DNA of 64,000 nucleotides, taken from positions 80,516 to 144,515 of the forward strand of contig JAAXWF010000002.1 of assembly GCA_013335095.1 (NCBI GenBank). The letters run 5' to 3'. The notes beneath the pieces are model-generated. The model did no database searches, had not been told where the DNA came from, and worked only from the letters and a program-made list of their open reading frames with translations. This document shows, one piece after another, positions 1,978 to 51,450 of the stretch. This DNA is from a candidate division WWE3 bacterium (lineage in GTDB: Bacteria; Patescibacteriota; 4484-211; GCA-002791395). A program made the position numbers and the translations under genes. Position 1 is the stretch's first letter, and each line of letters begins with the position of its first letter.

Positions 1978-3675
1978 ATGAATGAGACAAAACAAAATAT
2001 ATTAATAGGCGTTGCATGGCCATATGTAAATGGGAATCTGCATATCGGTCATCTAGCAGGATACTTATTAGCTGCTGACATCGAAGCACGTTATCAGAGG
2101 CTTAAAGGAAATGAAGTACTGATGGTTTCGGGTTCTGACTGTTATGGAACACCAATTACGGTTGAAGCAGATAAGCGCGGTAAAACACCAAAGGGAATTG
2201 CTGATGAATACCACGCCAAAGATATTGAACTCTTTCAACAAACACTCGGATTAACGTATGATCTGTATACACGGACAGACACTCAGCACCACGCTAAGAT
2301 TACTCAAGATTTTTTTATCAGAATGATTGAGCAAGGATATATTTTTATTGGTACAACCGAACAATATTTTTCAGCGACACAGAATCGTTTTCTGCCTGAC
2401 AGATATATTCAAGGGACTTGTCCACATTGTGGATTTCTTGAGGCTCGGAGTGACCAGTGTGATAACTGTGGTAAATTGTTGGATCAGGGTGAGGTTATAA
2501 ATCCAATTAGCAAATTAACAAAAGATCCGGTCGAACTAAAAGAAACGCAACATTACTTCATTGACTGGCCGAAACTACAGCCGAAGTTAGTTGAATACGT
2601 AGATAACGTATCACCGAAGTGGAAAGAATGGGTTAGAAATGAAACCAAAGGATGGTTACATGAGGGATTAAAACCGCGGGCCATTACACGTGATTTAGAT
2701 TGGGGAGTTCCAATACCGATAGATCGAATACCGAAAGAACTTCAGATTAGCGACTATGAAAACAAGCGTATTTATGTATGGTTTGATGCGGTAATTGGGT
2801 ATTTCTCGGCATCACTGTTATGGTCATCAATAAATAATAAAGACTGGAAGCCCTTCTGGTATGGTGATAATACATACCATTATTATTTCATGGGAAAAGA
2901 TAATTTAGTGTTTCATACGCTTTTCTGGCCAGGACAGCTAATGAGCTATGATGAAAAAGCACATCTGCCTGACAATGTCAGCATAAACATGTTCTTAAAC
3001 TATGACGGTAAGCAGTTTTCTAAAAGCCGGGGAGTATCAATAGATATCGATTACATTGTAAAAAAATACGGCAATGATATTGTTCGGTTCTATTTAGCAT
3101 ACGTAATGCCAGAAAAAAAGGATGCCAGCTTCACATGGCAAGACTTTCAAGAAAGGATCAATTCGAGTCTTATTGGAACATTAGGTAATTTTATCCATCG
3201 AGTACTAACTATTGGTTATGGGGTTGAACGTCTGAAAGATCCCAAAATATCCGAAGATGTACAATCAAAGATACTAAGTTCTTTTAGTACTTCAAAAGAT
3301 GCCCTGGAGAAAACTGAATTCCGATTATATGTCGATTCCATATTGCAACTTGCAGCTCATGGCAATCAACTCGTTGATCATAGTAAATTGTGGGAACTTA
3401 AAAAATCAGATTTACCCAAATTCCAACGAATAATAGAGGATTTGTATGCAATAATAGCTGCACTCACGTTTCTAATCGAACCATTGTTACCATCTGCTTC
3501 AGAGTCACTCAAACAAATACTTTCTATTGAACGAAATATTGAATCGCCCTGGGAAAAAGACGATGTGGTATCGCGAATCATTAAAGAAGCGCAATCAATT
3601 AATTTAAATCAAAAGCCAATTCCTCTATTTCAAAAGATAACTGACGAACAAATACAAGAGGAAAGTATTATTTAA
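1978..3675 (+). CDS. metG: methionine--tRNA ligase (class I aaRS, core form without C-terminal tRNA-binding extension)
   Basis: 'PYVNGNLHIGHLAGY' (HIGH motif), 'KFSKSRG' (KMSKS motif), Zn knuckle 'CPHCGF…CDNCG', and an anticodon-binding helical C-domain. Confidence 0.9.
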   Translation: MNETKQNILIGVAWPYVNGNLHIGHLAGYLLAADIEARYQRLKGNEVLMVSGSDCYGTPITVEADKRGKTPKGIADEYHAKDIELFQQTLGLTYDLYTRTDTQHHAKITQDFFIRMIEQGYIFIGTTEQYFSATQNRFLPDRYIQGTCPHCGFLEARSDQCDNCGKLLDQGEVINPISKLTKDPVELKETQHYFIDWPKLQPKLVEYVDNVSPKWKEWVRNETKGWLHEGLKPRAITRDLDWGVPIPIDRIPKELQISDYENKRIYVWFDAVIGYFSASLLWSSINNKDWKPFWYGDNTYHYYFMGKDNLVFHTLFWPGQLMSYDEKAHLPDNVSINMFLNYDGKQFSKSRGVSIDIDYIVKKYGNDIVRFYLAYVMPEKKDASFTWQDFQERINSSLIGTLGNFIHRVLTIGYGVERLKDPKISEDVQSKILSSFSTSKDALEKTEFRLYVDSILQLAAHGNQLVDHSKLWELKKSDLPKFQRIIEDLYAIIAALTFLIEPLLPSASESLKQILSIERNIESPWEKDDVVSRIIKEAQSINLNQKPIPLFQKITDEQIQEESII

Positions 3676-4596: not shown

Positions 4597-5631
4597 ATGC
4601 CTTATCAAAACAGAACATTACAGAATGAACGACTTACGTTTCTTTTTTCAATTGTTGGAATCCTCTCATTTTTGAGTCTCGCAACCGCTGCGCCAATAAC
4701 TTCGTCAAATAATATTTTTAATATGTTGTTTCCAAAAACTTCGGCAGATGCAAAGTCGTCAAATAATCTTAGTGCATTTTTTAGTACAAAAAATATTAAT
4801 GATGTAGCAAATGAAGATGGGCAAACACTATCAATTCCACAAGTTATTCAAGATGTGTCTTGGATTGGTTCGGGTGATACAGTGGATGATTCGTATGCTG
4901 GATTTATATTTCACCGCAAGGGATTACCGCTAAACGCATCGATTCAATCAGCATTTCTGGTATTAAAATCATCCGAAACAAATTCGACGCCCATCTCGGT
5001 AGATATATATGCTGAATCAGACAAACAGCCAGAACAATTCTCTTCTTCAAGTAAGCCGTCAGATCGGATTATAGGAACAGATGTAATAACGTATACAACC
5101 ACAAAAACATGGCGGAAGGATGAGGTTGTACTTATTAATGTAACACAAGTAATTGATCAAGCACTCACTGCCAATCCCGAGTTGCAGTCAATCTCCCTGA
5201 TAATGAAAAATACTTCTTCAGTAGCAAAACAGAGGCGGTTCTTTTATGGAAAATCAAACACGATAAAGTCACCTCGACTATTCGTTAGATACAGAATGAA
5301 TGACGTACGCACCGATAGTAATGTCACAATTCCGCCATCTTCAACGAAATTGCCGACAAGGATCCCAACCTCAATTAACATAACACCGACTCCTTATCCG
5401 ACCATAACATCAGCACAACCCATTACTGCTATACCGACACAAAGACTAAACAACTGTATTATTACTGGTTGTAGCGGGCAAATTTGTAGCGATCAAGAGA
5501 TGTATACAACATGTGAGTACAAGGACGAATATGCGTGCTATAGAAATGCGAAATGTGAACGTCAATCAAACGGGAAATGTGGCTGGACGATGGATAATAG
5601 TCTAAGTCAATGTCTCAGTTCGACACGGTAA
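4597..5631 (+). CDS. secreted hypothetical protein: signal-anchor, Thr/Pro-rich linker, C-terminal 10-Cys module
   Basis: Hydrophobic N-terminus (LTFLFSIVGILSFLSLATAAP). It is followed by 'LFPKTSADAK', a variant of the FPKKESSA motif shared with two other proteins here. There is a PT-rich linker (PTRIPTSINITPTPYPTITSAQPITAIPT) and a Cys-rich C-terminus (CIITGCSGQICSD…CEYKDEYACYRNAKCERQSNGKCGW). Confidence 0.5.
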   Translation: MPYQNRTLQNERLTFLFSIVGILSFLSLATAAPITSSNNIFNMLFPKTSADAKSSNNLSAFFSTKNINDVANEDGQTLSIPQVIQDVSWIGSGDTVDDSYAGFIFHRKGLPLNASIQSAFLVLKSSETNSTPISVDIYAESDKQPEQFSSSSKPSDRIIGTDVITYTTTKTWRKDEVVLINVTQVIDQALTANPELQSISLIMKNTSSVAKQRRFFYGKSNTIKSPRLFVRYRMNDVRTDSNVTIPPSSTKLPTRIPTSINITPTPYPTITSAQPITAIPTQRLNNCIITGCSGQICSDQEMYTTCEYKDEYACYRNAKCERQSNGKCGWTMDNSLSQCLSSTR

Positions 5632-5648
5632 TTAATGAATAACGATCA

Positions 5649-8579
5649 ATGAAGAATAGTAATACAAATAAAAACTATTTAGCTGTTATTGTTGTAGCAA
5701 CGGTATTAATGGTAACTTCAATTATAGGAATATCAACATATTATCCACCAACTAAAGGCTCCCTTTCTACTATATTTCCCAAAAAAGAATCTTCGGCACA
5801 AACCGGAACTCTTCAGGTTAGCAACAACTTAATCCTGAATCAAAATAACGAACGTTTTATCTTTAAAGGCGTCAATTTGGAATTTTACCGAGACATGAAT
5901 GTCAGTAATGTAACGTATACCGGTTGGGAAAAAAGAAATCAGATTGTTTCAAAACTAAAATCACTAGGAATAAATGCCGTACGTGTGAACTATAGATCAG
6001 ACAGTATCAAATCGACGGCAAATGGACATACAGAGAACGGAAACATCTCTCAGCTACTTGATATGCTAAAACTCTTTTCTGATAATGGTATTTATGTTAT
6101 GCCGAGTGACCACATCTTTACCGGCAATGACATAGCAAATAAAGAGAATCTTTCATTCCCAAATTTCAAGAAAGTAATTGATGATTCACGAGCTCGGGGA
6201 TATGAACACATGCTAATAATGAATCCTTACAATGAACCATATAATAACGAAAACTGGTCTGCATGGGCAAGCGAAAATAAATCTACGTTAGATTACTTGC
6301 GGTCAACGCTTCAGTTTAAGGGTCTTATAATCTTAGACAATCCATTATGGGCAGGAGCTATAAACGTAGACCAAGCAAAACAACTCCTAGCATATGACAA
6401 AACGTTACTTGGTGGCTCTACCGAATTAGCCTTTTCAAATCATTATTATCCCAATTGGGGATTAGATGGACCCAATCAAGTGATGACATCAGCAAAGTCA
6501 ATCCCTTTAATTTTAGGAGAGCTCGGCCAATGGTCTTCACAAGGATCTAATCCCAACTATGTAATATCAGTACTCGATTTACTGGTTAAGACAGGCATTC
6601 CAAATGGTCATAATGGTTTGTTCCCATGGATCTGGAATTGGAGTGATGCAAATACGATGACGAGTTCAGATCAGCTAACATTAAATAGTCATGGAGACTT
6701 ATTTGTTAATAACTATTATTCCAAAATTGTATCTAATTCGAATACTCCCGTTCCGTCTGCTGTAATAAATCCGACATCAACGCCAGTCACCGGAAACCAA
6801 TTATCCAATATCCCCTCAACAATATTAAATGGACTTCGTGAAGGTGGGGTAAATCTTGTATTTGGTTGGTGGGATCCACATGGATATGCTCCGACGGAAT
6901 TCGACGATGATCTACCAATAATAAAAGCAAAAGGTGGAGGACATATCAGACTACCTGTAAGTTCTGACTTAATTGAGGAAGGTACAACTGGTAAGGTAAA
7001 GGAAAGCACTTGGCAAGAATTAAAAACATTTATCGAAAAAGCAAAGAGCAATGGCTTAGTCACAGTAATTGATTTGCATCACCTCGGCGTATTTTCTTTA
7101 GATTACTATCAAGGGAAGTCAACTGATACAAGCTGGACTGATTTTATGGATAAAATAAGATACACAGATTGGGCAGCCCGACATATATCATTATCTGAGG
7201 ACATTGCGAAACATATTAACAGAGATTTAGATAAAAGTTGGGTTGTTTTTCAACCTGCAAATGAACCAATATTTACCGGAAACAATGAACCGCAGATTTG
7301 GTATAACCACCAAAATAAACTAATACCTGCAATTCGTCGCGGTTGCAGCGACTGCACTATCTTTATCATGTCGCACTCCTGGCAAAGCATTGGTGCAACC
7401 GTAGATAATATGAACTTCTCTCAAATGCAATGGTGGGACAATAAGATGATCATTGACATGCATTACTATTCACCACTAGACCTAACGCATTGTGGATATA
7501 CTTCGAGTACGAATAATTGTGCTGGAAAACAATGGCCGGGAACATATACAGGTTGGACGACATTCGGTACTGAACATAACGGCACATGGGATAAAACATT
7601 TCTTGAAAGAGAATTTAAGCGGGTGTGGGATTATCAACAGAAAAACCCTGGTGTAGTAGTGCATTTTAGCGAGATAGGAACTCACTCGGGGCTAGAAGAT
7701 ATAACTCGATCTGCATATCTACGCGATGTGACATCAATACTAAGCGCCAATGGAGTTGGCTGGTCATGCTGGGAGTGGGATAAGAACTTTGGAATCATTA
7801 ATCATCCCAAAACGATTGAAGCATGTTTAGGTACAACCGGAATGTCGGTATCGCCATATCCAACATCGCAAGCTTCAATCACACCTACTCCGACATTACA
7901 TGTAAGCAATTCACCGACCCCGTCAACAACGCTTGCTCCAACTCAAACTCCTAGTGCTGGTTTTTATAGAGGAATCAATCTTGGTGGTACAGATATAGCA
8001 ATTAACGGAAACACCTGGTCTGGTGAAGCTACTGCTAATATAAGCGCACTTGGAACGTCAAAGTCAAACCAGTGGTTGAATTTAAATCCATCTGCTGACG
8101 CACAAATGACAAAAATGCTGCAAGACTGGCAAGAGCACTGGAATCATGAGATTACTATTAATAATATTGCTCCTGGTAAATATCGTTTATATGTTTATGG
8201 AGTAATGGATTGGAATGATTCAAATGCACAAACAATTACAAGCTATGTAAATAATCAGAGAATAGGAGAGTGGAAACCAGCTACGAGTGGATCATGGGTT
8301 AAGATGGGACCATGGGATGGGTTAATAACTAATGGAACGGCAACGATTACGACTAGTGCAACTAATAACAAACTTGCTGGAATAGAGATTTATCGTCTTT
8401 TAAGAGCTGATATAAATAACGATGGGATTGTTAACATTTTTGATCTTGGATTACTTTCAGTACATTATGGCGAGCAGTTAACAACATCCAGTGACGCTAT
8501 TGTTCGTAACTGCGATATTAATCAAGATAATGTAATTAATGTTTTCGATGTATCAATCCTAATACAAGAATATAAATAG
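5649..8579 (+). CDS. secreted multidomain glycoside hydrolase: two GH5-like (clan GH-A) catalytic domains, a putative carbohydrate-binding beta-sandwich, and a C-terminal type-I-dockerin-like module
   Basis: Signal-anchor (LAVIVVATVLMVTSIIGI). Domain 1: 'FKGVNLEFY…GINAVRVNY…IMNPYNEPYNNENW' (NEP acid/base) and 'ILGELGQWSS' (GExG-type nucleophile context). Domain 2: 'GHIRLPVSSD…VIDLHH…VFQPANEPIFTG…VHFSEIGTHSG'. The C-terminus 'DINNDGIVNIFDLGLLSVHYGE…CDINQDNVINVFDVSILIQEY' has two Ca-binding-loop-like dockerin segments. Confidence 0.75.
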   Translation: MKNSNTNKNYLAVIVVATVLMVTSIIGISTYYPPTKGSLSTIFPKKESSAQTGTLQVSNNLILNQNNERFIFKGVNLEFYRDMNVSNVTYTGWEKRNQIVSKLKSLGINAVRVNYRSDSIKSTANGHTENGNISQLLDMLKLFSDNGIYVMPSDHIFTGNDIANKENLSFPNFKKVIDDSRARGYEHMLIMNPYNEPYNNENWSAWASENKSTLDYLRSTLQFKGLIILDNPLWAGAINVDQAKQLLAYDKTLLGGSTELAFSNHYYPNWGLDGPNQVMTSAKSIPLILGELGQWSSQGSNPNYVISVLDLLVKTGIPNGHNGLFPWIWNWSDANTMTSSDQLTLNSHGDLFVNNYYSKIVSNSNTPVPSAVINPTSTPVTGNQLSNIPSTILNGLREGGVNLVFGWWDPHGYAPTEFDDDLPIIKAKGGGHIRLPVSSDLIEEGTTGKVKESTWQELKTFIEKAKSNGLVTVIDLHHLGVFSLDYYQGKSTDTSWTDFMDKIRYTDWAARHISLSEDIAKHINRDLDKSWVVFQPANEPIFTGNNEPQIWYNHQNKLIPAIRRGCSDCTIFIMSHSWQSIGATVDNMNFSQMQWWDNKMIIDMHYYSPLDLTHCGYTSSTNNCAGKQWPGTYTGWTTFGTEHNGTWDKTFLEREFKRVWDYQQKNPGVVVHFSEIGTHSGLEDITRSAYLRDVTSILSANGVGWSCWEWDKNFGIINHPKTIEACLGTTGMSVSPYPTSQASITPTPTLHVSNSPTPSTTLAPTQTPSAGFYRGINLGGTDIAINGNTWSGEATANISALGTSKSNQWLNLNPSADAQMTKMLQDWQEHWNHEITINNIAPGKYRLYVYGVMDWNDSNAQTITSYVNNQRIGEWKPATSGSWVKMGPWDGLITNGTATITTSATNNKLAGIEIYRLLRADINNDGIVNIFDLGLLSVHYGEQLTTSSDAIVRNCDINQDNVINVFDVSILIQEYK
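8397..8576 (+). other. dockerin type-I-like duplicated Ca2+-binding segment (C-terminus of the GH5 protein)
   Basis: Two copies of D-x-N-x-D-G/N-x-V-N-x-x-D followed by hydrophobic helices (DINNDGIVNIFDLGLL / DINQDNVINVFDVSIL). Confidence 0.6.
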
Positions 8580-8613
8580 TTAGACCTTTTCTTTAAAATA
8601 ATAGTTAACAAAC

Positions 8614-11600
8614 TTAAGGACTTCCGGTTACTGGTGCAATCCTCAAAGTACCGCCATCGTTCATTACTGTTTTTACTTGGGTAGCAGTAAGGCCATAATT
8701 ATACAGACGGACATCATCAAAGATAGAGTCTGCATACGTAGTACCTTCTCGCCCGATATATAAATTCAGGGGGTTTGCGCTTAAAGTTTCACCCATGGTG
8801 GTCTGATTATCTCTCGCACCATTAATATAAAATGCATAATTTGTTCCTTGATGTACAAATGTTATGTGAGTCCATACGTTTTGAGGGATTGTCGATGTCG
8901 AGGCAAAGTAACCGGTACTCTCGTTATAAAATTCGACACGGTTATCGTTTAAGATATACAAAGAGTAATCCCATAACGTAGTTCCATTAGTCTTTAACAC
9001 AAGTGGTTCATAGCCAGAACCTGAACGCTTAATCCAAAATGCAATACTGAGATCTTTTGTAATATCCAATTTCGGATTATAGGGAACTTCAATATATTGT
9101 GATGAGGCACTACTAAAGGATAACCCATTATTTAGTTTTCCGTCAACAATTGCTGGCGAATTATAAATTGTACCGGTGAGACCATTATTTGATGAATCAT
9201 AAGCGGTAGATCCAGAAGCTTCATCAAGCTTCCAATGGGCAAATGGAGCTCCACGATTATAATCCCATGCAACTTGAGCAGATGTTCTAGCATAATCGTA
9301 TATCCGTATATTATCTAGTTTTGAGTTGCTATATTGAGATTGGTCATCATATCCTCCGAATTGAAGGATGCGGGAGCCTGCCCCAGCCGTTGTGTACGGG
9401 ACATTTGACGTAGTACCAGAAGCGACAAGCAGACCATTCCGATAAATTGACATGGTATCAGTAGCATTATTAAATGTGCAAGTTACGTATTGCCATTCAT
9501 TTAATGTCATTGAACTATCTGCGGCCAGCTCATAATAACCACCTGAATTATTGTAAAAAAATCCACAATCAAGACCTGATGATGATTTAAGCTCAAAATA
9601 ATAATTAGCGGTTCCGCCATCTGCGTATTTATTAATGAATGAATCATTACCTGAGGATGGCAATCTTCGGGGGTATATCCATGAAGACAGTGTAAAACTC
9701 GTTAATCGTAAACTTGTAGAATCTGAAATAGTAACTTGGTCATTAGTTCCGTCAAAATCGAGCGATTTACCTAATTTACCAGTAACCCAATCCGCCGCAT
9801 CCATCGTAGAATCAATAGTTCCGTTAAAATCATTTCCAGACGTATCAACAACAGTCGTCGTCGGATCCATATCAAATTGCCATTCTCCAACAGGTGGGTT
9901 ACACGTACTGGTATCTCCTGGAACACAATATTCCCGAGACGAGCTTCTTGATGCTGTTGTGCCATCAGACTCAGTAGACAATGATCCCAATACAATTGCC
10001 TTACCTGTATTATATTCAGTCAGTACGTCGCTGTCCGATAAAGCCGCATTGTATATTTTTATTTCATCTAGTTTCCCAGGGTAATAATACTCATATGGGG
10101 TCCCATTATTTGATCGACCAATGTTTAGATTTGAGCTATTAGATATAGATAGGGTCGAAGATGTTAACGCATTAGCTAGTTTACCGTCTTCATATGTTTT
10201 CAATATCGAACCATTACGTTCAAATACAATATGATGCCAGCTTCCATCTGCAATATCTGATCGACCATATAGAAAGTATTCGGTACCGTTTACATAAACA
10301 GAACTGTACCAACGACTGTCATCCGTACTATCATGTAAACCAATTTCATATCCATACCTGGGTGCCGATGATACTTTGCTAATCATTATAAAGTAATTAT
10401 TGAAAACAGAAGCTTGAGTAGAATTTACCCACAAGCTGATTGAAAAATCAGCATTATCACCGAAATCAATACTATTATTATCCGTTACAGTTACGACATC
10501 AGAGCCATCAAAGGATACCGATTTACCTATTTTCCCATCGTTACTCCAAGCGGGTTTTTCTGAAGAGGTACCAAAATTAGCATCGAGCGAACTTCCTTGA
10601 ACTGTATTATTATGCGCAACAGATCCATATCCTTCATCCAGCTTCCAATAACCCACCGGTCCCGATACCGGAGTTCCAACTAGCGGGTGGTTCGCATTCA
10701 TATCTTGAATTATTTGGGATGGGGTACGGGCATAGTTGTATATTTTTAAATCATCCAGAGTACCATCTAGAGAACTGTTAGCACCAGCGCCACCCATTTG
10801 AACGGTGCCAGTCGAGTTCAATAGTGATCCAGTCGCATCACTAATAGCACCAGGGAGAAGATTTCCATTAAGATAAATTGACATATTAGTACCGCTCTTT
10901 ATCGCTGCGATGTGATACCACTGATTAGCGACAAGAGCAGATCCAGCGCCTGGAAAGACAAAGAACTCTGAACTTGAATTTGACCATGAAAAAACCGGTT
11001 GATTATCTGTTCCATTAATATAGAGTCGATATGACTGCCAAGGAGATGCACTATGTGACTTCCAGAACATTGTTGCCGCCTCTCCGGATTTATTAGTTGG
11101 CAAAACATCGAGCTTTATCCACCCCATTAACGAAATATCTGATGAAGGTTCCAATATACTATTATCTGTAGCTTCTATGTAGTCATTACTGCCATCGAAA
11201 TCAAGACCCTTACCATATTTCGCAGTTTTCCATAACGCTTGGGTGATCGTCGCACTAGTACTATTGCCACTGGTATCATTGGCTATAGCCCCTGATCCCT
11301 CGTCCATTTTCCAATATCCAACGGGTCCAGGTGCAAAGGCATTGAGCTTACTTACCTCACTCGCGGTTAAGGCACGATTATATACTCTAACTTCATCCAG
11401 ACTGCCATTAAAGTCCATAGCACTATCGCCATTACCATGATGACCAATCCATGTATTTGTTCCTAATCCTGAACACGAAATTGTTGTAGTAATTGATTCA
11501 TTAGCAACCTGCATGCCATCGATATAAAGACTGTGATAACTAGCGGATTTCACAACATACGCATAATGATGCCAACCAAAGCCAGCTACAAACAAACCTG

Positions 11601-14085
11601 TATTCACACCACTCCAATCGCTTCCATCATAATTGAAGCCAGTTACTCCGGCAGAAGAAAATGGATCATCTAACCGTAATCCGACGCAGTCGCCTAATGA
11701 AATTAATTCGGAACCATTACTATCAGCACTGGTTAAGTTTGCCCACCCTGATAATGTCACCTCGGAAAGATTGCCCATAAGCCCACTAATCATAATGCTG
11801 TCATCTGTACCATCAAAAGATGTACCATTTCCAAATTTTCCTGATGTATAGGTAGAATTACCATTCCAAGCACCATCACGCCCATTACCTGATCGATCGC
11901 ATGAATCATTAGCGCCGCCAGAACAGGTATTCGCCGCGGCTTCATCCATTGGCCAATAACCAATTAGTCCATCTGAAATAGATTCATTACTCGAAGAACC
12001 TAAACTAACACTAATAGTTTCACCAGAACTACTTAATGTAGAGAGTCCAGCAACTTCGCGTGATGTTTTTTCTTTTTTATATACCTTAAATTCATCTAAA
12101 TATCCGTGATAATTTGCTGATGATGATCCTCCTAATAATAAATCGTTTGAATCACTCGCTGGAGATCCGACACCGTTTGTGCTCGTAGCAGCCAGGCGCC
12201 CATCTACATATACTGATATCTCATCATCTGCGTCATCAGAATATGTAACAGCAATGTGCTGCCACCGATTAAGACGCAATATATCTGGAACCGAAACACT
12301 TGCATCAGTAGTTGCAAGATCGAGTGATACTTCTAAATCCATTAATCCATCAGACCCTTCATTCGTTGTACGAATATATGTATTCGTGCCTTTTTGAATT
12401 ATTTGGCCAACATTATTTTCGCCATCAGACAACGTCTTTACCCAAGTGGAAAGGGTAAATCCGCTTGATAACATTTTATCGAGGTCGATAGAATCATTAT
12501 TTGTTAACGTCGAAACATTGCTTGAACCATCAAATAAGATACATGAATTTGCAATACACAGATCCTCACTTTTCCAGCTTGGGCCAGTAATTGAATACGT
12601 AACACGGACTTCAAGTAGATCAATACCCACTCCTGATGCAGGCGGATCAAATAAGTAATTATTTACCCAATAGTTATTAAAAGGCTCATTTGCCTTAACA
12701 GTGTAAACATCAAAATCACCTTGTTCTACGTTAATCGAAAGAACTGGTACCTCTGATATCTGCCTGTCTATTTCGTGTAATACGATGTCACCGACCTCTA
12801 AGGTATCGACACGAATCCATTCAAATGCGCTTTGTCCGCTTTTCTTCGCATAAATAAGCTCATCATTTGTAGCTTTCACATCATCGTTAATCGTATAGAT
12901 TTCTTTTTTAGGAGACGTAATGATCGATCTTAGGGTATTAACTTTAAATTCATGCGTATCTGTATTTAAACTCAAGATTTGATCGCCTGGGGAAAATGAT
13001 TCTATTGGACGATAAACACCGTTACCATCAAGCAATAAACTCCCAGTAGGAAATGAGAATGTGTCGATCTGTGCATTCACTCGTACACGAAAATTAGTAT
13101 TATCTAGCTCAGAAGCGACCCATGTTCTACCCCACGTATCACTAGTACTACCAGCCGTAAATGTAGCATCAGTACTCGATAAGGGTCCTACACTTGTATA
13201 TGATGAAGCATACGTGGTCCCGCCATTATGCGAAAGACGAACACCTATACCATCGCCGGCAAACGTATCACATCCGGTACAACTAGATGCCTCCATTCTT
13301 ACTTCAATACCTAATATGGTTGCGGAAGATGGAATACTGAAGCCAAACGAATAATAATCTTGCATATCTAGGTTTGTTGCTTCGTATGCATATGCATTAT
13401 TGCTCGTATAAGCATTAGCCGGAGTAGTCCAAGAATTATAGTCTTCACCTGAATGTGTTGGTGCAACAAATCCTGTATCTGCCGTTGATGTCAACGGTGC
13501 GCTGTTTGAATTATTACTAAGGTCATGCGCGGTACTTCCATAGCCTTCATCAAATGATAAATAGGTAACCGGTGCTGTACCAATTTCTTCTGTATTCAAT
13601 GAAGCTGAACCACCACTCGGAGTTAACGAAGTTACATTAGTCACCGAACTATCACTTTTTGTTGAGACGCTTCTATTTCCATAGTACATATATGCATTGT
13701 TTACACCATTAATAATTTCTGAATATGCGACATAATAAGTTGTCGTAGAAGTATTACATCCGGAAACAAGCTGATAGCGATATCTTTTTCCTTCACTATT
13801 TGTAAATCGTGTATCATCGCAATCTGATTGCATTTTTCCCGAAGATATTAATGTTGAGGTATTAACTGTTATGGTAATTCTTCGTTCAGATAGTGAAGCA
13901 TTATGAGTGAAAGTGATCGATTGTCGATAACTAAAGGTATCATCGTACCAGGCATATGCTCCTTTTGGCTGGTTGAAAAATACTAAATAAGACAGACCGA
14001 TGGTAATAAGTATTCCGATAATTAGTCGAATACGTTTATGTAAAGTTTCACCAATCATCAGCGTTTTAAAATTAATAGTATTCAT
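8614..14085 (-). CDS. giant surface protein paralog 1 (1823 aa): signal-anchor, DUF2341-like N-domain, embedded Hint/BIL-like module, multiple LamG/ConA-like jelly-roll repeats
   Basis: TM helix (LIIGILITIGLSYLVFF). The N-domain 'AWYDDTFSYRQSI…DDTRFTNSEGK…MYYGN' aligns with the N-domains of paralogs 2, 4 and 5. Repeated LamG-type linker motifs are 'GYWPMDEAAANTCSGGANDSCDRSGNG', 'GYWKLDEGYGS', 'REYCVPGDTSTCNP' and 'IYNYARTPSQIIQDMNANHPLVGTPV'. Confidence 0.8.
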   Translation of the reverse strand: MNTINFKTLMIGETLHKRIRLIIGILITIGLSYLVFFNQPKGAYAWYDDTFSYRQSITFTHNASLSERRITITVNTSTLISSGKMQSDCDDTRFTNSEGKRYRYQLVSGCNTSTTTYYVAYSEIINGVNNAYMYYGNRSVSTKSDSSVTNVTSLTPSGGSASLNTEEIGTAPVTYLSFDEGYGSTAHDLSNNSNSAPLTSTADTGFVAPTHSGEDYNSWTTPANAYTSNNAYAYEATNLDMQDYYSFGFSIPSSATILGIEVRMEASSCTGCDTFAGDGIGVRLSHNGGTTYASSYTSVGPLSSTDATFTAGSTSDTWGRTWVASELDNTNFRVRVNAQIDTFSFPTGSLLLDGNGVYRPIESFSPGDQILSLNTDTHEFKVNTLRSIITSPKKEIYTINDDVKATNDELIYAKKSGQSAFEWIRVDTLEVGDIVLHEIDRQISEVPVLSINVEQGDFDVYTVKANEPFNNYWVNNYLFDPPASGVGIDLLEVRVTYSITGPSWKSEDLCIANSCILFDGSSNVSTLTNNDSIDLDKMLSSGFTLSTWVKTLSDGENNVGQIIQKGTNTYIRTTNEGSDGLMDLEVSLDLATTDASVSVPDILRLNRWQHIAVTYSDDADDEISVYVDGRLAATSTNGVGSPASDSNDLLLGGSSSANYHGYLDEFKVYKKEKTSREVAGLSTLSSSGETISVSLGSSSNESISDGLIGYWPMDEAAANTCSGGANDSCDRSGNGRDGAWNGNSTYTSGKFGNGTSFDGTDDSIMISGLMGNLSEVTLSGWANLTSADSNGSELISLGDCVGLRLDDPFSSAGVTGFNYDGSDWSGVNTGLFVAGFGWHHYAYVVKSASYHSLYIDGMQVANESITTTISCSGLGTNTWIGHHGNGDSAMDFNGSLDEVRVYNRALTASEVSKLNAFAPGPVGYWKMDEGSGAIANDTSGNSTSATITQALWKTAKYGKGLDFDGSNDYIEATDNSILEPSSDISLMGWIKLDVLPTNKSGEAATMFWKSHSASPWQSYRLYINGTDNQPVFSWSNSSSEFFVFPGAGSALVANQWYHIAAIKSGTNMSIYLNGNLLPGAISDATGSLLNSTGTVQMGGAGANSSLDGTLDDLKIYNYARTPSQIIQDMNANHPLVGTPVSGPVGYWKLDEGYGSVAHNNTVQGSSLDANFGTSSEKPAWSNDGKIGKSVSFDGSDVVTVTDNNSIDFGDNADFSISLWVNSTQASVFNNYFIMISKVSSAPRYGYEIGLHDSTDDSRWYSSVYVNGTEYFLYGRSDIADGSWHHIVFERNGSILKTYEDGKLANALTSSTLSISNSSNLNIGRSNNGTPYEYYYPGKLDEIKIYNAALSDSDVLTEYNTGKAIVLGSLSTESDGTTASRSSSREYCVPGDTSTCNPPVGEWQFDMDPTTTVVDTSGNDFNGTIDSTMDAADWVTGKLGKSLDFDGTNDQVTISDSTSLRLTSFTLSSWIYPRRLPSSGNDSFINKYADGGTANYYFELKSSSGLDCGFFYNNSGGYYELAADSSMTLNEWQYVTCTFNNATDTMSIYRNGLLVASGTTSNVPYTTAGAGSRILQFGGYDDQSQYSNSKLDNIRIYDYARTSAQVAWDYNRGAPFAHWKLDEASGSTAYDSSNNGLTGTIYNSPAIVDGKLNNGLSFSSASSQYIEVPYNPKLDITKDLSIAFWIKRSGSGYEPLVLKTNGTTLWDYSLYILNDNRVEFYNESTGYFASTSTIPQNVWTHITFVHQGTNYAFYINGARDNQTTMGETLSANPLNLYIGREGTTYADSIFDDVRLYNYGLTATQVKTVMNDGGTLRIAPVTGSP
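12646..13041 (-). other. Hint (Hedgehog/intein) -like / bacterial intein-like (BIL) module, aa ~349-480 of paralog 1
   Basis: 'SLLLDGNGVYRPIESFSPGDQILS…' matches intein block A (C/S-L-x-x-D/E-T-x-V…I-E-x-L-x-x-G-D-x-V-L), with Ser in place of Cys1. Downstream it continues through 'EIYTINDDVKATNDELIYA' (a block-B-like T-x-x-[H->E]), 'WIRVDTLEVGDIVL' and 'FDVYTVKANEPFNNYWVNNYLF' (a block F/G-like VY…NF…VNN terminus, cf. intein VHN). This is a manual alignment to the Ssp DnaE mini-intein. Catalytic positions are degenerate. Confidence 0.5.
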
Positions 14086-19190: not shown

Positions 19191-22100
19191 CTATTGGGTA
19201 AATTTCACGGCAGAGTTCTGGTTCATGACCATCTTTATCTGCTCGGAGGTGAGCGCATAATTATAAATCTGAACATCGTCGATAGTACCATCAAAATATC
19301 CTGTTGCTGGTGTAAACATACCGATTGTGGCTGGTCCGGTATTTTCGCTAATTATTCCGGTAGCACTCTCGGTTGCATCCAGTTTACCGTCAATATAAAT
19401 CTTAACCGCAGATCCATCATAGGTCACTGTTATAAAATACCATGTATTATTGTTAAGCGAGGTTGTTGAATCAGTCATATCAGAAGTTAAATCTGAAGAA
19501 CGAAATCGCACCAATTTGTTATAAATAGCTACATAAAACCCTGCAGTATCTTTTGAATAAATAAATCGATAATCATTTACCGGAAGATTAGTTCCCTTAA
19601 CCCAAGCTGATATAGACATGCTCGTAAATGTTTGCAATAAAGCAGGGTTGCCCAAGGTAATATAATCATCAACACCATCAAATAATATTCCGCTATTAAA
19701 TTTACCCGATGTAGTCCGAGTAGGGGAGTTAGTCAATGTTCCGTTCAAACCATTTCCAGTAGAATCATATGCTGTAGAACCAGAAGTTTCATCAAACTCC
19801 CAATGAGCGAGTGGCGCTCCATGATTATAGTCCCAGGCAATCTGTTCAGGAGTTCTTACATATGAATACAGTGTGGTTTTATCAATAACTCCCTTAAAAT
19901 AATCGCCACCATAATATCCCGCATCAATCTGATCGCCAAAAAGGATATGATCTGTTGTACCACCCAGATCATATGTACCAGTAGCTGTACAATCAAGGAC
20001 TCCATTTAAGTACCCTGTATGCGCACGTCCGGTCGCGTTATATGTCATTGTTGCATAATACCAACGATTAGAGGTCAATGTGCTCCCATCACAGCCACGA
20101 GTACCGCCCTCATACGTTTGATAGCTAATACGATCACTATTTGTTACCAACATTGCATAATGAGTACTACCACTATTATTAGCCGGACCTTTTGTAACAA
20201 TCCACCGAGTAGTACCTTCATTACCGGTGATATAAAACCAAGTAGATAAGGTGTAACTAGCTGGATTTAGTAACGCGTTGTGGGTTACCTGCATTCGGTC
20301 ATCCGTACCATCGAATAGAACAGCGTTACCAATTTTACCAATACCCCATGATGGGCTGCCTAATAAGGACCCGTTAAATGCGTTTCCGCTCAAATCATTA
20401 ACAGTCGTACCGGATTTCTCATCAAAGTTCCACACTGCAACCGGAGGATTACACGTTGAGGCATCACCGGGAACACAATATTCACGTGCAGCTGAGTTAT
20501 CTGGTGTTTTGCCATCTGACGCGGTACTTGTTGCACCAAATGTTTGTACTTTTCCTGAATTATATTCGCTCAGGATATCGGTTTGAGTTAAATCAGTTAA
20601 ATAAATCTTAACCTCGTCAATTGATCCATTAAAATATTCACCTCCATCATATGAATTACGACCGATATCAAGGTTACTTCCGCCAATGTAATCAGACGAG
20701 GTCGTATCTGATGCAACTACTTTTCCATCCATGTATAGCACCCGCGCTTTAGTCGTCGCATTGTACGAACATGCAACATGATGCCAATTTGAATCTGTAT
20801 ATGTTGCAGTTGAATAAATGTCATTAGCGTAGAATCCGCAATGGAGCGTATTATTTGGATTGAATCGAAAATCGAGCATTCGATTAACTAATTGTTGTGT
20901 TCCAGAAGAAATTATCGTAGTTGCGATTCCGCTGGCCGCGCGTTTTACCCATGAACTTAACGTAAAAGATGAATTTGCTAATGCCAGCCCACTACTGACA
21001 TTTATATAATCATTCGATCCATCAAACTTTATGCCTTTGTAATACTTTCCATCATTCGTCCATCCCGAGGTTGAGGTAGCGGGGGATGCCATATTTGTTA
21101 ATGTACCATTTAGAGTAGAACCGCCAGTACCGATATTGTTAGCCGTAGTACCATACCCCTCATCAAAATTCATATGGAGTGCCGCGCTGCCGACTGGAGT
21201 ACCGACCAATGGATGCCCGGCGTTCATATCTTGAATGATTTGAGAAGGAGTACGAACGTAGTTATACAAGCGGACGTCGTCCATATTTCCACCCCAAGAA
21301 TGATTCCCGATCTCAAGAGTTTGTGAAGAATCATCTTCACGAGAACCCGAAGCATTGCCGCCTGTGAATGGTACTGATGTACCATTATAATAAATTTTTA
21401 TCCCTGCAGTAGTTGAACTTCCATCCCATGTAACGGCAACGTGATACCATTTACTAGGGTCATACGTACTATTGGCCGAACCATCATTACCTGCAGTTGA
21501 TGCATACAAATTAGAGGTAGAGTAACCGACTTCAAACTGGATATCATCGTCTTTATAGTTATTAACACCCCATCCGGATGATCCGTGACTAGCATTTTTA
21601 CCAATTGCTTCGTCGTCTGAACCATTTTTGTTTTGCGTCCAATATGAAATGGTTAGCGCAGATAAGTTATCAAAGGCGGCAGGAGAACCGGCACTAACGA
21701 CATCATTCACACCGTCGATAGTTAATGCCTTTCCATATTTCCCATTTGTCCATTGAGCGCTCCCGGTAATTGACCCATCGTACCCTCGACCACTAGAGTC
21801 GTTTGCGGTAGAACTACTCCCTTCATCAAACTTCCAATACCCAATGGGACCAGGAACCCAATTATATAGTCGGGATATTTCTGCTCCATCTAGGGCTCGA
21901 TTGTAAATCCGAAGGTCATCAATATATCCATTAAATCCACTGGTACCTGAACTAAGCGCCCCAATTGCAGTTGCACTAGAATTACCAACAGGAACGGAGG
22001 TATCGACGGCAGTTTCAACAAGAACTCCATTAATATATAAACTTGCAAGATTTTTACCTTCATCAAATGATGCAGCAAAATGATACCATTTGTTCTGTTC

Positions 22101-25100
22101 ACTTGAACCAATCCATGTATCTAGAGAGTTTGTAGACCAACCAATGGCATGCCCAAATGAGATCTGACCATAACCAATAGCCACATAGTAAGGTACATCG
22201 GCCTCTGCATATAAACTACCTTTTGCTATCAAAAATTGCCAATCATGACTCGTATTGGCATTTGTATCGTAAAACCACCCCGAAATAGTGTAATTATTCG
22301 TTAAGTTGAGTGATGCTGTATTGGGTATAGCAATATAGTCACTAGTACCATCAAATGCCGTACCTAATCCATATCGCCCATTAACAGATGTCGTATTGCC
22401 ATTCCACGCACCATCAACACCATTTCCCGATTTGTCACATGAATCATTAGTACCTCCAGTACAACTATTTGCTGCAGTTTCATCCATAGGCCAATACCCA
22501 ACGAGACCATCTGATAAAGAAATTGCCGCATCACTCCCCCCAAAGGATGCCGAGATTCCAACATCATTGTTTTTACTACGAAAATCACCTAAAACCAAGT
22601 TATTCAAACGAGCGTAGTTATAAAATTTAACCTCATCAATTGATCCAGTCCAATAATTTTCTACACTAGTTCCGTTATATCCAGCGCCAACATACAGCGT
22701 AGGGGATGAACCTGAAATTGACCCAGTCGCACTGATACCTCCCTGTTGATCGACAAGCATGCCGTCAACATACAAAGAGAGCGTTGAAGTTCCATTTTTC
22801 ACCATTTCAACAAAATGCCATTTTGAATCGGCATACGATGCAGTCGAGCAGGCATCATCTTCAGGAAACGAGGTTGCGTCGTCATCGATACCAAAACAAA
22901 TCGTACCACTGCTATTCATATATGCTTTGTATCCGCCACTCGCATATCGAGTAATGAGCGTATCTGTACCACTAACTACACTTGGATGTCTAAACCACAT
23001 TGAAACGGTAAAGCTTTCGGTGGATGGATTTAGTTCAGTATCGGAAGAATATGTCCTTGAAACAACATCATTTGTACCGTCAAACAGTAGACATTTATCA
23101 GAAGCGCATAAACTCTCATCTTGCCACACGGGACCGTTTAACACCGCTGAATTAAGGCTACTTGTCGCATCATTAATAGTAGTACCAGTACCTTCGTTAA
23201 GAGGATAATACAAAGTGGCGGTACCATCAGTAATACAACTTGATACAAACTTCCAATTAGTGTTACTTACCGACGTAGAAGAATATGCAGTGACCTTACC
23301 ATTCTGATCTCTTACCGATACATCGAATATTTCAAAGGAACCATTACCTGACCACGTCCGAGCAGAACCATTTGTAGTGGAAGTAATTGCAATAGCATCA
23401 GATCCACCACATCCCGACATTGTTCCAAATAACATCGCGCCACTATTTGTGACACCACTAGATCCAACAGTCATATCCCCAGTTGAACTATTCTTCCATA
23501 CCCCCGTAGTTGTAATCGTGTATGAGCCAGAATTTATTGAAGAATCGAATTGATTGAACTGACCAGAAACAGTTGTAACATCATCAACGGTCAATGTATA
23601 TGCGCCAGATAAGTTAAATACAGAGTCGACAGATACAATAAAGTCCTGGCCCGTTCCATCCAAAGAAAGATTTGAGCTAAGAATAAATTTACCATCTGAC
23701 TTATTTACCGTAAAAGTGCCGTCAGGTAACTCGCCACCACTCGATGAAAACGTTTGATCTTTATTTCCTAATATCTTTATTGGAACGTTTCCACTAGTAC
23801 CATTGTTTGCAATCGTAATATTACCCGAGACTGCGAGTATTCCTGGTCCATCTACGTATCCAGATCCACACCCACCGCTGTCAAAAGTCAAAGTACCGTC
23901 TATCGTTAAGGTTGTGCCTGAAGCGACCGCCAAATTATCGTTGCATGATAATACCGTAAAGTTATAAAAACTTTGACTTCCGGTTATTACACCAGTCCAA
24001 TCGTACGATGAGGTAAACAGCACCGTACTGGTACCAAAGTTTAGAGTACCACCTGTATACGTGTAATCGTTTGTAAAACGTATTGTTCCGCTAAATATAA
24101 GTACTCCGCTCGATTTGTTTACTACAATCGAAGGAAACGCAGCTGTACTGCTATCACCGGAAATAGTCTGATTACCTACACCATTTATAGTTATAACTCC
24201 ATCTCCTGTAATACCGTTACTTGTTGAGGTAATATCTCCATTTGCAATTATCGAACCGGGTCCCTCTAATACTCCACTTCCACACCCATGACTGTCCAAG
24301 GTTAATGTACCATCTACTGTAATTGTTGTACCTGATGCAATTGATAGATTATCTTGGCACGAATATATCGTAAAGTTATAAAAACTTTGACTTCCGGTTA
24401 TTACACCAGTCCAATCGTACGATGAGGAAAAAAGTACTGTACTAGTACCTACACTTAAAGTACCTGCTGTATACGTGTAATCGTTCGGAAAACGCATCGT
24501 TCCACTATATGTAAGAATTCCACTAGGCTTATTTACTACAATTGAAGGTAAGGATGCGGAACTGCCATCTCCTGAAATAGTCTGATTCCCGGTACCACTT
24601 ATAGTTATAACTCCATCTCCTGTAATACCGTTACTTGTTGAGGTAATATCTCCATTTGCAATTATCGAACCGGGTCCCTCTAATACTCCGCTTCCACACC
24701 CATGACTGTCCAAGGTTAATGTACCATCTACTGTAATTGTTGTACCTGATGCTATCGATAAATTATCGGCACAGGAATAAATCGAAAAGTTATTAAAATT
24801 TCGAGATCCACTTACAACGCTGTAATAATCATCTGATGCGGTTATACGAACAGTTCCTGAATTTGTATTAAAGGTACCACCTGATATCGTCCAGTTATCA
24901 TATTCTGATAGGATCCCGCCAGTAGAGGTAAACGTTCCTCCCGATAGTAAAAAGTCGCCGCCATATTGAATAGTTATGTCTCCAGAACTCGCTCCAGTAA
25001 ATGTACCGCCGCGCTGTTCGAATCCCAGTGAGCCGATATAAAAAGACACACCCGAACCTTGAGTAACCGTCCCTGAGTAGTTTGTTTCAATTAATATGCC

Positions 25101-25421
25101 ACCACCAGTATCATCTGGATCATTGAATCCTGAGTTTATCGTTACATTTTTATTTGGAGTACCAGTAGTACACGTCGGACCTCCAAAGATAGCCCGATCG
25201 GTGTTGGCAGGTACAGTATTTCCAGCCCAATTTGCTCCTTCGGTCCAATTATTCGTACTACCCTCACCATCCCAACATTTATCAGCCGCCATCGAGACAT
25301 TGGGCGAAGACAACGAAATAATCCATAAAACAAATATAGTAATGACAATACGTACCCCTTGGAGTGAAAATAAATTTTGAGCAGTCATAAATAAACTATT
25401 TCTCATTCGACGAAATATCAA
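19191..25421 (-). CDS. giant surface protein paralog 3 (2076 aa): signal-anchor, Gly/Thr-rich beta-helix-like N-region containing ~140-aa tandem repeats, then LamG/ConA-like repeats
   Basis: TM (VITIFVLWIISLSS). The N-region 'CWDGEGSTNNWTEGANWAGNTVPANTDRAIFGG…' and the repeats '…SGTTITVDGTLTLDSHGCGSGVLEGPGSIIANGDITSTSNGITGDGVITISGTGNQTISGD…' have no DUF2341 N-domain. The C-terminal 1200 aa carry the same LamG linker motifs as the other paralogs (GYWPMDETAANSCTGGTNDSCDKSGNG, YNYVRTPSQIIQDMNAGHPLVGTPV, REYCVPGDASTCNP). An alternative start lies a few codons inside. Confidence 0.8.
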   Translation of the reverse strand: MIFRRMRNSLFMTAQNLFSLQGVRIVITIFVLWIISLSSPNVSMAADKCWDGEGSTNNWTEGANWAGNTVPANTDRAIFGGPTCTTGTPNKNVTINSGFNDPDDTGGGILIETNYSGTVTQGSGVSFYIGSLGFEQRGGTFTGASSGDITIQYGGDFLLSGGTFTSTGGILSEYDNWTISGGTFNTNSGTVRITASDDYYSVVSGSRNFNNFSIYSCADNLSIASGTTITVDGTLTLDSHGCGSGVLEGPGSIIANGDITSTSNGITGDGVITISGTGNQTISGDGSSASLPSIVVNKPSGILTYSGTMRFPNDYTYTAGTLSVGTSTVLFSSSYDWTGVITGSQSFYNFTIYSCQDNLSIASGTTITVDGTLTLDSHGCGSGVLEGPGSIIANGDITSTSNGITGDGVITINGVGNQTISGDSSTAAFPSIVVNKSSGVLIFSGTIRFTNDYTYTGGTLNFGTSTVLFTSSYDWTGVITGSQSFYNFTVLSCNDNLAVASGTTLTIDGTLTFDSGGCGSGYVDGPGILAVSGNITIANNGTSGNVPIKILGNKDQTFSSSGGELPDGTFTVNKSDGKFILSSNLSLDGTGQDFIVSVDSVFNLSGAYTLTVDDVTTVSGQFNQFDSSINSGSYTITTTGVWKNSSTGDMTVGSSGVTNSGAMLFGTMSGCGGSDAIAITSTTNGSARTWSGNGSFEIFDVSVRDQNGKVTAYSSTSVSNTNWKFVSSCITDGTATLYYPLNEGTGTTINDATSSLNSAVLNGPVWQDESLCASDKCLLFDGTNDVVSRTYSSDTELNPSTESFTVSMWFRHPSVVSGTDTLITRYASGGYKAYMNSSGTICFGIDDDATSFPEDDACSTASYADSKWHFVEMVKNGTSTLSLYVDGMLVDQQGGISATGSISGSSPTLYVGAGYNGTSVENYWTGSIDEVKFYNYARLNNLVLGDFRSKNNDVGISASFGGSDAAISLSDGLVGYWPMDETAANSCTGGTNDSCDKSGNGVDGAWNGNTTSVNGRYGLGTAFDGTSDYIAIPNTASLNLTNNYTISGWFYDTNANTSHDWQFLIAKGSLYAEADVPYYVAIGYGQISFGHAIGWSTNSLDTWIGSSEQNKWYHFAASFDEGKNLASLYINGVLVETAVDTSVPVGNSSATAIGALSSGTSGFNGYIDDLRIYNRALDGAEISRLYNWVPGPIGYWKFDEGSSSTANDSSGRGYDGSITGSAQWTNGKYGKALTIDGVNDVVSAGSPAAFDNLSALTISYWTQNKNGSDDEAIGKNASHGSSGWGVNNYKDDDIQFEVGYSTSNLYASTAGNDGSANSTYDPSKWYHVAVTWDGSSTTAGIKIYYNGTSVPFTGGNASGSREDDSSQTLEIGNHSWGGNMDDVRLYNYVRTPSQIIQDMNAGHPLVGTPVGSAALHMNFDEGYGTTANNIGTGGSTLNGTLTNMASPATSTSGWTNDGKYYKGIKFDGSNDYINVSSGLALANSSFTLSSWVKRAASGIATTIISSGTQQLVNRMLDFRFNPNNTLHCGFYANDIYSTATYTDSNWHHVACSYNATTKARVLYMDGKVVASDTTSSDYIGGSNLDIGRNSYDGGEYFNGSIDEVKIYLTDLTQTDILSEYNSGKVQTFGATSTASDGKTPDNSAAREYCVPGDASTCNPPVAVWNFDEKSGTTVNDLSGNAFNGSLLGSPSWGIGKIGNAVLFDGTDDRMQVTHNALLNPASYTLSTWFYITGNEGTTRWIVTKGPANNSGSTHYAMLVTNSDRISYQTYEGGTRGCDGSTLTSNRWYYATMTYNATGRAHTGYLNGVLDCTATGTYDLGGTTDHILFGDQIDAGYYGGDYFKGVIDKTTLYSYVRTPEQIAWDYNHGAPLAHWEFDETSGSTAYDSTGNGLNGTLTNSPTRTTSGKFNSGILFDGVDDYITLGNPALLQTFTSMSISAWVKGTNLPVNDYRFIYSKDTAGFYVAIYNKLVRFRSSDLTSDMTDSTTSLNNNTWYFITVTYDGSAVKIYIDGKLDATESATGIISENTGPATIGMFTPATGYFDGTIDDVQIYNYALTSEQIKMVMNQNSAVKFTQ
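23935..24790. repeat. direct tandem repeat, unit ~420 bp, ~2 near-identical units plus a diverged third copy upstream (to ~23770), inside paralog 3 coding sequence
   Basis: The + strand runs 24188-24360 and 24608-24780 are nearly identical base for base (…ccgttacttgttgaggtaatatctccatttgcaattatcgaaccgggtccctctaatactcc…). Likewise 23940-24130 matches 24360-24550 (…cgtaaagttataaaaactttgacttccggttattacaccagtccaatcgtacgatgagg…). Confidence 0.8.
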
Positions 25422-50808: not shown

Positions 50809-51450
50809 TTACTTTTTTACCGTAGGAGTTGGAGAGGGCACGCTTTGCATAAATGAATTGATGTTTTTCAAAACGTCATCAATAGATCCAGAGGAACTTC
50901 CAACGATAGGGGTCGGGGAGATCGAATTCTTCGTAGAACTTTTTAATGGATATTTTGATGCAAAATAACCTAAATCATACACATCAATCTTTTTATTATC
51001 ATCAAAATCAGCTGCAGTGAACGTTGAATCTGGATTGGCTGATTCGGACTTATCATAATACGAGGCAAATAAGCCAACGTCATAAACATCAATTTCGCCA
51101 TCTCCATCAATATCCCCAGTTCCTTTTAACTCACTTCCAGCATCACCAGATGGTGTCGGAGTTAATGACGCTGCCGAAGATTCTTTTTTAGGAAACAATG
51201 TGTCTAGCTGGGTATTAATGAATGGTGCAACAGCCGCTATGGTTACGGCGAGACCAATCGTCGTTATTGAAATAACCATTGGAATACCAGTAAATTTTAT
51301 TTCACTTAACTTAGAAAAAGTCCGCAAAAATTTTTTATCCTTAGTGGGGTAAATCGGAGCATCATCGAGTGGCTGTGCATTAAAAAGATCAAGGGATTCA
51401 TTATTGGCCTGATTAATCCACAAGCTATTATTTGTATTATTATCCTGCAT
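50809..51450 (-). CDS. small membrane-anchored protein carrying a type-I-dockerin-like module and the FPKKESSA motif
   Basis: TM 'GIPMVISITTIGLAVTIAAVAPFI', then 'DTLFPKKESSAA', then dockerin-like duplicated segments 'DIDGDGEIDVYDVGLFASYY' and 'DFDDNKKIDVYDLGYFASKY' (nt ~50950-51117), with a PT-rich C-tail. Confidence 0.6.
   Translation of the reverse strand: MQDNNTNNSLWINQANNESLDLFNAQPLDDAPIYPTKDKKFLRTFSKLSEIKFTGIPMVISITTIGLAVTIAAVAPFINTQLDTLFPKKESSAASLTPTPSGDAGSELKGTGDIDGDGEIDVYDVGLFASYYDKSESANPDSTFTAADFDDNKKIDVYDLGYFASKYPLKSSTKNSISPTPIVGSSSGSIDDVLKNINSFMQSVPSPTPTVKK

Follow-up and report, generated by a model that had tools for sequence, protein, structure and literature searches.

Why two otherwise unrelated genes, 45 kb apart and in opposite orientation, should share an almost identical string of 24 nucleotides is the question raised by the DNA analysed here, a window of 64,000 nucleotides (contig JAAXWF010000002.1, of 358,632 bp, in assembly GCA_013335095.1, positions 80,516 to 144,515 of the forward strand) from a metagenome-assembled genome of the candidate division WWE3. 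The source sequence is additionally present as an assembly from SRR11449211. Both copies encode the octapeptide FPKKESSA in the N-terminal part of an exported protein. WWE3 (Katanobacteria) belongs to the Candidate Phyla Radiation (CPR), which is believed to comprise bacteria that live attached to other cells; how they do so has to be judged mainly from the proteins that they secrete or display at the surface. On the evidence of sequence comparison, the octamer forms the C-terminal end of a discrete predicted export leader of about 50 residues, carried by unrelated secreted proteins in a small clade of WWE3.

The repeated 24-mer and the level of its conservation

The first copy, TTTCCCAAAAAAGAATCTTCGGCA, lies at 5775-5798 of the forward strand (TTT CCC AAA AAA GAA TCT TCG GCA) and the second at 51172-51195 of the reverse strand (TTT CCT AAA AAA GAA TCT TCG GCA). 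Coordinates and reading frame were checked for both, and the identity of 23 of the 24 nucleotides reported by the initial annotation was verified; the sole mismatch is the third base of the proline codon. Both copies are in frame and N-proximal, encoding residues 43-50 of a 976-residue product and residues 86-93 of a 213-residue product, two exported proteins otherwise unrelated. When the sequence was shuffled 100 times, the 24-mer pattern matched 0.01 times on average, and two matches were never reached. An all-against-all scan allowing at most one mismatch found no other such repeat joining non-paralogous genes of the window, all remaining 24-mer repeats being among five giant paralogous genes.

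The 976-residue protein (NTV30964.1; gene at 5649..8579, + strand) contains two GH5 cellulase stretches (PF00150, E 2e-35) and a C-terminal dockerin (PF00404, 30 bits). The 213-residue protein (HGA91_03350, NTV30985.1; 50809..51450, - strand), whose locus is syntenic with the orthologous locus L029, is dockerin-like, with a sub-threshold match of 18.7 bits against a cut-off of 22.9. A third protein, to which a variant of the motif had been ascribed, is encoded at 4597..5631 (+ strand; HGA91_03240, NTV30963.1); it has 344 residues and ends in a Cys-rich domain resembling the eight-cysteine-cluster family, again with a match under the curated cut-off. The domain matches agree with the descriptions first given to these proteins, below threshold for the latter two. 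In all three, the motif follows a hydrophobic segment and starts about 8-12 residues past it; the best 17-residue Kyte-Doolittle means range from 2.3 to 2.7, and lysine or arginine is present in the n-regions. An AlphaFold2 model of the 213-residue protein, computed from three sequences, was set aside because its mean predicted local distance difference test score was 44.

It had been suggested that the two genes recently exchanged an N-terminal leader cassette. Local alignment of the two 5' regions gave a score of 21.5, compared with 9.9 ± 1.1 for the null, and spans exactly the 24 nucleotides, so that the DNA similarity of the leaders is sharp-edged. The rest of the leaders is without DNA similarity, which speaks against such an exchange.

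A search with the 213-residue protein retrieved two relatives. The first, its orthologue from another sample (P0002, 57% identity), has LFPKDESSA, with FPKDESSA encoded as TTT CCA AAA GAT GAG TCT TCT GCG. The second, a paralogue elsewhere on the contig of the window (P0003, HGA91_03700), has LFPKDQSNA, with FPKDQSNA encoded as TTT CCA AAA GAT CAA TCA AAC GCT. In P0035, an orthologue that is further removed and lies in a syntenic locus, the motif is YPKKESNA, encoded as TAT CCA AAA AAA GAA TCG AAC GCC. The peptide [FYN]-P-K-x-x-[SA]-x-A is thus kept across orthologues and paralogues, and synonymous codons vary freely. RNA folding energies at the three motif sites of the window were no better than those of shuffled sequences (z +0.2 to +0.5), the window had no Rfam match at the gathering score, and the exact 24-mer had no match in the JGI metagenome collection. 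Since the codons differ in the relatives, and no fold, Rfam or 24-mer match was found, the long-term constraint bears on the peptide. As far as sequences can tell, the octamer is constrained as a peptide and not as a DNA or RNA element, and the mRNA-level element that had been proposed as one explanation is not borne out.

Two wider DNA searches were also negative. A protein-guided scan of the JGI metagenomes with an alignment of P0001, P0002 and P0003 gave 253 pattern matches, none of which was confirmed by tblastn. A degenerate DNA pattern for FPKKESSA matched 22 times in 185,579 species genomes, the source genome not being among them; all 22 matches were out of frame or lacked an upstream hydrophobic segment, and their number is about that expected by chance (17-22).

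A family of export leaders

Further members were sought with a 49-column profile of five leaders, compared with 1.84 billion representative proteins (E<1e-3). The 10 matches comprised three proteins that were a source of the query, six new members (P0035-P0040) and P0041, a repeat protein without the leader. One further leader-bearing protein is encoded by a gene adjoining that of a new member. In total, 12 leaders from a few related metagenomic organisms were aligned. A profile of the three window leaders alone was too weak a query: against an index of 5.8 billion proteins it returned 20 word-sharing candidates, none with E<=10.

The same layout is held in 12 of 12 leaders: a charged n-region, then some 20 hydrophobic residues (the h-region), a first box, a polar spacer of fixed length and a second box. 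Box 1, a canonical small-x-small triplet, reads [AST]-x-[AS] followed by proline in every leader, usually with phenylalanine next ([AST]-x-[AS]|P-F). From this proline to the final alanine, the spacer measures 18 residues in nine leaders and 19-20 in the other three. Box 2 has the consensus [LI]-[FYN]-P-K-x-x-[SA]-x-A. Numbered from its end, position -1 is always alanine, position -3 is serine in 11 leaders and alanine in one, and position -2 varies freely (S, N, H, Y, Q, F or D). Proline at -7 and lysine at -6 never change, and position +1 holds Q, A, K, L or S but no proline. Where the n-region is short, the whole leader spans 48-52 residues.

In the GH5-dockerin protein the leader comprises 50 residues (5649..5798, + strand): the n-region MKNSNTNKN, an h-region of about 20 residues, TYY|PP, an 18-residue spacer and FPKKESSA, which occupies positions -8 to -1 of a putative cleavage site SSA|Q (box 2 at 5775..5798). 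Against the leader profile, this leader reached 75.5 bits in the library search and 70.6 bits locally. The leader of the 213-residue protein (51172..51450, - strand) begins with a 55-residue N-terminal tail, followed by the h-region, AVA|PF, an 18-residue spacer and FPKKESSA|A (51172..51195). The orthologues keep this tail (SLWxNQANxESLxxFNAQ … KKFLRTFSKLS), an unusual feature for a disposable signal peptide. The Cys-rich protein has a 52-residue leader (4597..4752, + strand; 66.7 bits in the library search) with TAA|PI and a 20-residue spacer, and ends in FPKTSADA|K (4729..4752; TTT CCA AAA ACT TCG GCA GAT GCA). This last motif had been described as a variant shortened by a deletion, which is probably an alignment artefact, because FPKTSADA fits the F-P-K-x-x-[SA]-x-A pattern of the 12 members ungapped, at full length and in register. 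The gapped nucleotide match that a 6-nucleotide deletion would imply (17/18) does not rise above the shuffle null.

A hidden Markov model (HMM) of the 12 leaders was run on the open reading frames of about 100 kb of sequence from the clade, including, from the source genome beyond the window, about 6 kb of adjoining sequence and one 10.6-kb piece located elsewhere. Members scored 69-83 bits and every other open reading frame at most 11 bits, including those of the window's five giant secreted proteins. The refuting observation named earlier, that other members of the secretome lack the motif, was half borne out: these five proteins carry ordinary signal peptides without the leader, which thus labels one subclass of the secreted proteins and not all of them.

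Once the leader is removed, a dockerin-like module (in the GH5 protein, P0036 and the small proteins) is the only thing that mature parts have in common. Those of the Cys-rich protein, of L028b and of P0038-P0040 match no other member. At locus L028 of a related organism, two adjacent genes have leaders (688-831 and 2976-3119) that are about 70% identical (MKLNQSGA[AV]PLLVL…), and their mature parts are without detectable similarity. The pair illustrates duplication or shuffling of leaders in this family.

Neither Pfam (E<=0.1) nor NCBIfam (E<=1) gave a match in the leaders of the 11 proteins scanned, and the literature searched contained no account of a leader of this kind, either in WWE3 or elsewhere in the CPR. 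The leader flags a subset of the secretome, and neither database has a model for it. Its long h-region and distant putative cleavage site may lead standard predictors to annotate a transmembrane anchor instead. With an explicit model of the leader, protein localisation in these genomes would be called more accurately, and co-evolving components of processing or sorting would be easier to find. The leader is best filed as a narrowly distributed element, useful chiefly for annotating CPR secretomes.

Proposed processing of the leader and alternative explanations

In our judgement the element is probably a lineage-specific, extended Sec-type leader, cut by signal peptidase I after the S-x-A of box 2 and constrained at the level of the peptide. 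It would target the protein to Sec; the membrane-proximal box 1 would be uncleavable, and a type I signal peptidase would cut after the S-x-A of box 2, releasing a mature protein that often bears a dockerin. Signal peptidase I follows the -3/-1 rule, with small residues at both positions, and is blocked by proline at +1. Cleavage at box 1 should therefore be blocked by the proline that follows it.

Several features are shared with class I signal peptides of the Sec pathway (LepB/SipS). The layout of n-, h- and c-regions is the same, with a charged n-region and a hydrophobic h-region, the latter being longer (about 20 residues) than the usual 7-15. In all 12 leaders, residues -3 and -1 are small, -2 is tolerant and +1 is not proline, and a helix-breaking proline stands a few residues upstream. 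The box also lies at the junction with the conserved mature catalytic domain. In the GH5 protein, SSA|Q is 18 residues ahead of the anchor sequence RFIFKGVNLE; GH5 homologues whose signal peptides are short and ordinary have their predicted cleavage sites (…IFAQ|SPGLRVQG, …VFAA|GPLRT, AAAQ|S…) 17-23 residues before the corresponding RF[IV]xGxNxE anchor. Finally, the ordinary signal peptides of the five giant proteins end in …TPKSAQA|AW, …HPKNADA|AW, …TPDRAEA|SW, …QPKGAYA|W and …SPNVSMA|AD. Four of the five have Pro-Lys, in one case Pro-Asp, ahead of the small-x-Ala box, so Pro-Lys recurs in the cleavage regions of this organism. The signal peptidase I signature, the sites of the GH5 homologues and the endings of the giant proteins are the reasons for which we read the octamer as a cleavage region. 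The initial annotation had offered a processing or sorting site distal to the anchor as one of its explanations. That proposal is supported by the conservation of the peptide in orthologues, paralogues and unrelated cargo, by the -3/-1 signature and by the position of the GH5 junction.

Other observations weigh against this explanation. Typical c-regions measure 3-9 residues, and here the site lies 18-20 residues past the end of the h-region; how it would reach a peptidase at the membrane surface has no explanation in the extended-leader model. The h-regions, of about 20 residues, are of transmembrane length. The 213-residue protein and its orthologues keep an N-terminal, cytoplasmic tail of 40-55 residues, whose conservation would suit an anchor kept in the membrane better than a signal peptide that is discarded. 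There is no signal peptidase gene within the window, and the codon identity of the two copies is somewhat above the coincidence expected for the same amino acids (p 0.007-0.03, see below). Compared with class I signal peptides in general, the WWE3 leader also differs in its total length of about 50 residues, in a first box apparently disabled by proline at +1, in its fixed spacer of 18-20 residues and in a near-invariant F-P-K, none of which generic signal peptidase recognition needs. A spacer forming an interfacial amphipathic helix that returns box 2 to the membrane was considered and rejected, the hydrophobic moments being no higher than those of shuffled spacers (median shuffle fraction 0.61).

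The most serious competitor, which we nevertheless regard as somewhat unlikely, is that signal peptidase I does not cut the leader at all. The proline at +1 of box 1 would then ensure that the protein is held by a permanent type II signal-anchor, with the spacer and LFPKxxSxA serving as a juxtamembrane stalk or sorting motif, and the motif would be read by another factor, such as a dedicated protease of the CPBP/Rce1 or rhomboid type, a glycosyltransferase or a partner in the cell envelope. The transmembrane-length h-regions followed by an invariant proline and a spacer of fixed length would suit this arrangement, as would the conserved cytoplasmic tail of the 213-residue family and an invariance of F, P and K that exceeds what a generic signal peptidase site needs. 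A gene for a PMT_2-type glycosyltransferase adjoins that of the 213-residue protein, also in the syntenic locus L029, and a gene for an Rce1-like/CPBP protein (weak Pfam match) lies 1.3 kb from the paralogue P0003. However, these neighbouring enzymes are circumstantial, with one instance each, and the co-occurring peptidase that the initial annotation had proposed to look for was not found in the window. Invariant small residues on either side of a free -2 are specifically what marks a signal peptidase I site, and the box of the GH5 protein ends exactly at the cleavage position of its homologues; both argue for cleavage by this enzyme rather than for a permanent anchor.

The two neighbouring genes deserve a brief description. 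The PMT_2-type gene, for a membrane glycosyltransferase resembling dolichyl-phosphate-mannose protein mannosyltransferases, is at 49475-50803 (+ strand), tail-to-tail with the 213-residue gene, and the pairing is kept at L029 (3541-4908). O-glycosylation might act on the Thr/Pro-rich linker (ASLTPTPSG) that follows the motif. The gene for the Rce1-like/CPBP intramembrane protease is at 7676-8665 (- strand) of L024, upstream of P0003, with genes for a pilin-like and a Pro-rich secreted protein between them.

A further possibility, to which we give a little less credence than to the permanent anchor, is that a WWE3 subclade uses the leader as a dedicated sorting signal for some of its exported proteins, mostly ones that bear dockerins, with a specific route and its own processing partner. 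If so, membrane release might be delayed or regulated by a specialised peptidase, or the proteins handed over to a cohesin-like assembly at the cell surface, and the leader would be a CPR counterpart of YSIRK or exosortase-type signals. The YSIRK-G/S (PF04650), KxYKxGKxW (TIGR03715) and ESPR (PF13018) motifs are thought to select a secretion route or its timing. They too are lineage-restricted, are found on unrelated surface cargo and coexist with ordinary signal peptides in the same genome. In contrast to the WWE3 motif, which is in an extended c-region, they are located in the n-region or at the n/h boundary; their cargo is of the LPXTG or autotransporter kind instead of the dockerin type, and the WWE3 leaders have no sequence similarity to them and no Pfam or NCBIfam match.

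Lower still in probability is a recent intragenomic transfer of the short tract, by micro gene conversion or by template switching between inverted copies, on top of the conservation of the peptide. Codon usage in the window is strongly biased, TTT, AAA and GAA making up 77%, 73% and 72% of their codon families. With this usage and the same residues, at least seven identical codons out of eight have a probability of 0.007. Adding the conserved upstream leucine and threonine, whose codons both differ synonymously between the two genes, gives seven identical codons out of 10 (p=0.03). The recently duplicated leader pair of L028, moreover, has only 18 of 24 nucleotides in common in box 2. From these values the identity is mildly above expectation. 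This excess, the low identity of the L028 duplicates and the status of the pair as the window's sole non-paralogous 24-mer repeat would be in keeping with a transfer. Against this, there is no flanking homology, the identity ends abruptly on both sides with the adjacent leucine and threonine codons already different, a mismatch falls within the tract, and 45 kb separate the copies; the test was made post hoc on one pair, and no recombinase gene was found in the window. Coincidence within the genome, under peptide constraint and codon bias, is more likely than conversion as the source of the 23 identical nucleotides. More generally, a strongly constrained peptide combined with codon bias can yield short exact DNA repeats between genes.

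It is highly improbable, and already largely refuted, that the 24-mer is a nucleotide-level element (a target of a small RNA or riboregulator, a recombination or inversion site, or a slippery site AAAAAAG): the copies are mutually inverted, both are in 5' coding regions, and the string holds A AAA AAG-like and UUCG sequences, but synonymous positions vary freely in relatives, no stable or shared fold or Rfam match was seen, the string is absent from the JGI metagenomes with only about 22 chance matches in the 185,579 genomes, no recombinase is nearby, and programmed frameshifting was rejected on the register of the heptamer, which is not X XXY YYZ, on an alternative frame that stops after about 20 codons and on the lack of conservation of the string.

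The inverted arrangement also recalls the vsa, vsp and vpma loci of Mycoplasma, in which a short conserved box in the 5' coding region is a site-specific inversion site. There, as here, a short near-identical DNA string lies just past the signal-peptide region of surface-protein genes. The WWE3 genes differ in that each of the two is complete and has a start and leader of its own, and in that 45 kb with housekeeping genes lie between them. The nucleotides of the box are not conserved in orthologues, and neither the window proteins scanned nor the precomputed Pfam matches for L023 showed a recombinase domain. As for other leader classes, none of the 12 leaders contains a cysteine, so that a lipobox L-[AS]-[GA]-C with cysteine at +1 is absent. 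Type IV prepilin leaders (N_methyl, PF07963) are cut before the hydrophobic segment, at G|F-T-L-I-E, whereas the WWE3 leader is without that motif and has its box after the segment. By these comparisons, the element is not a lipoprotein leader, a prepilin leader, an inversion box or an RNA element.

Other genes of the window

The five giant genes are consecutive (8614-36130, - strand), encode paralogous secreted proteins of the LamG/DUF2341 type with 1675-2076 residues, and make up about 43% of the window. The mature N-terminus is conserved in four of the five as WYNSSWS[YF]RKK or a close variant. A gene of the same kind stands beside the leader-bearing genes at L028. In the 1823-residue member (8614-14085, - strand), residues of about 350 to 480 were recognised by eye as a candidate Hint/intein-like insert (LLLDGNGVYRPIESFSPGDQIL … VYTVKANEPFNNYWVNNYLF). 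The gene for the 2076-residue member (19191..25421) contains a direct repeat with a period of 414 bp (23951-24732; 183 consecutive 24-mer matches), corresponding therefore to two copies of a 138-residue module that are nearly identical in DNA.

Genes for type IV pilin-like proteins with N_methyl leaders were found at 47681-48112 (- strand; GFTLIELMVV) and at 55280-55618 (- strand; GYTFVHLLIA), the latter ending in a Cys-rich module. Because such leaders are present on other genes of the same window, the organism appears to use several leader classes.

Lastly, the product of 36261-38480 (+ strand), a protein of 739 residues, has a complete domain of the choline/carnitine O-acyltransferase family (PF00755, E 1.3e-68). 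Members of this family are chiefly eukaryotic, so that one in a reduced CPR genome is unexpected.

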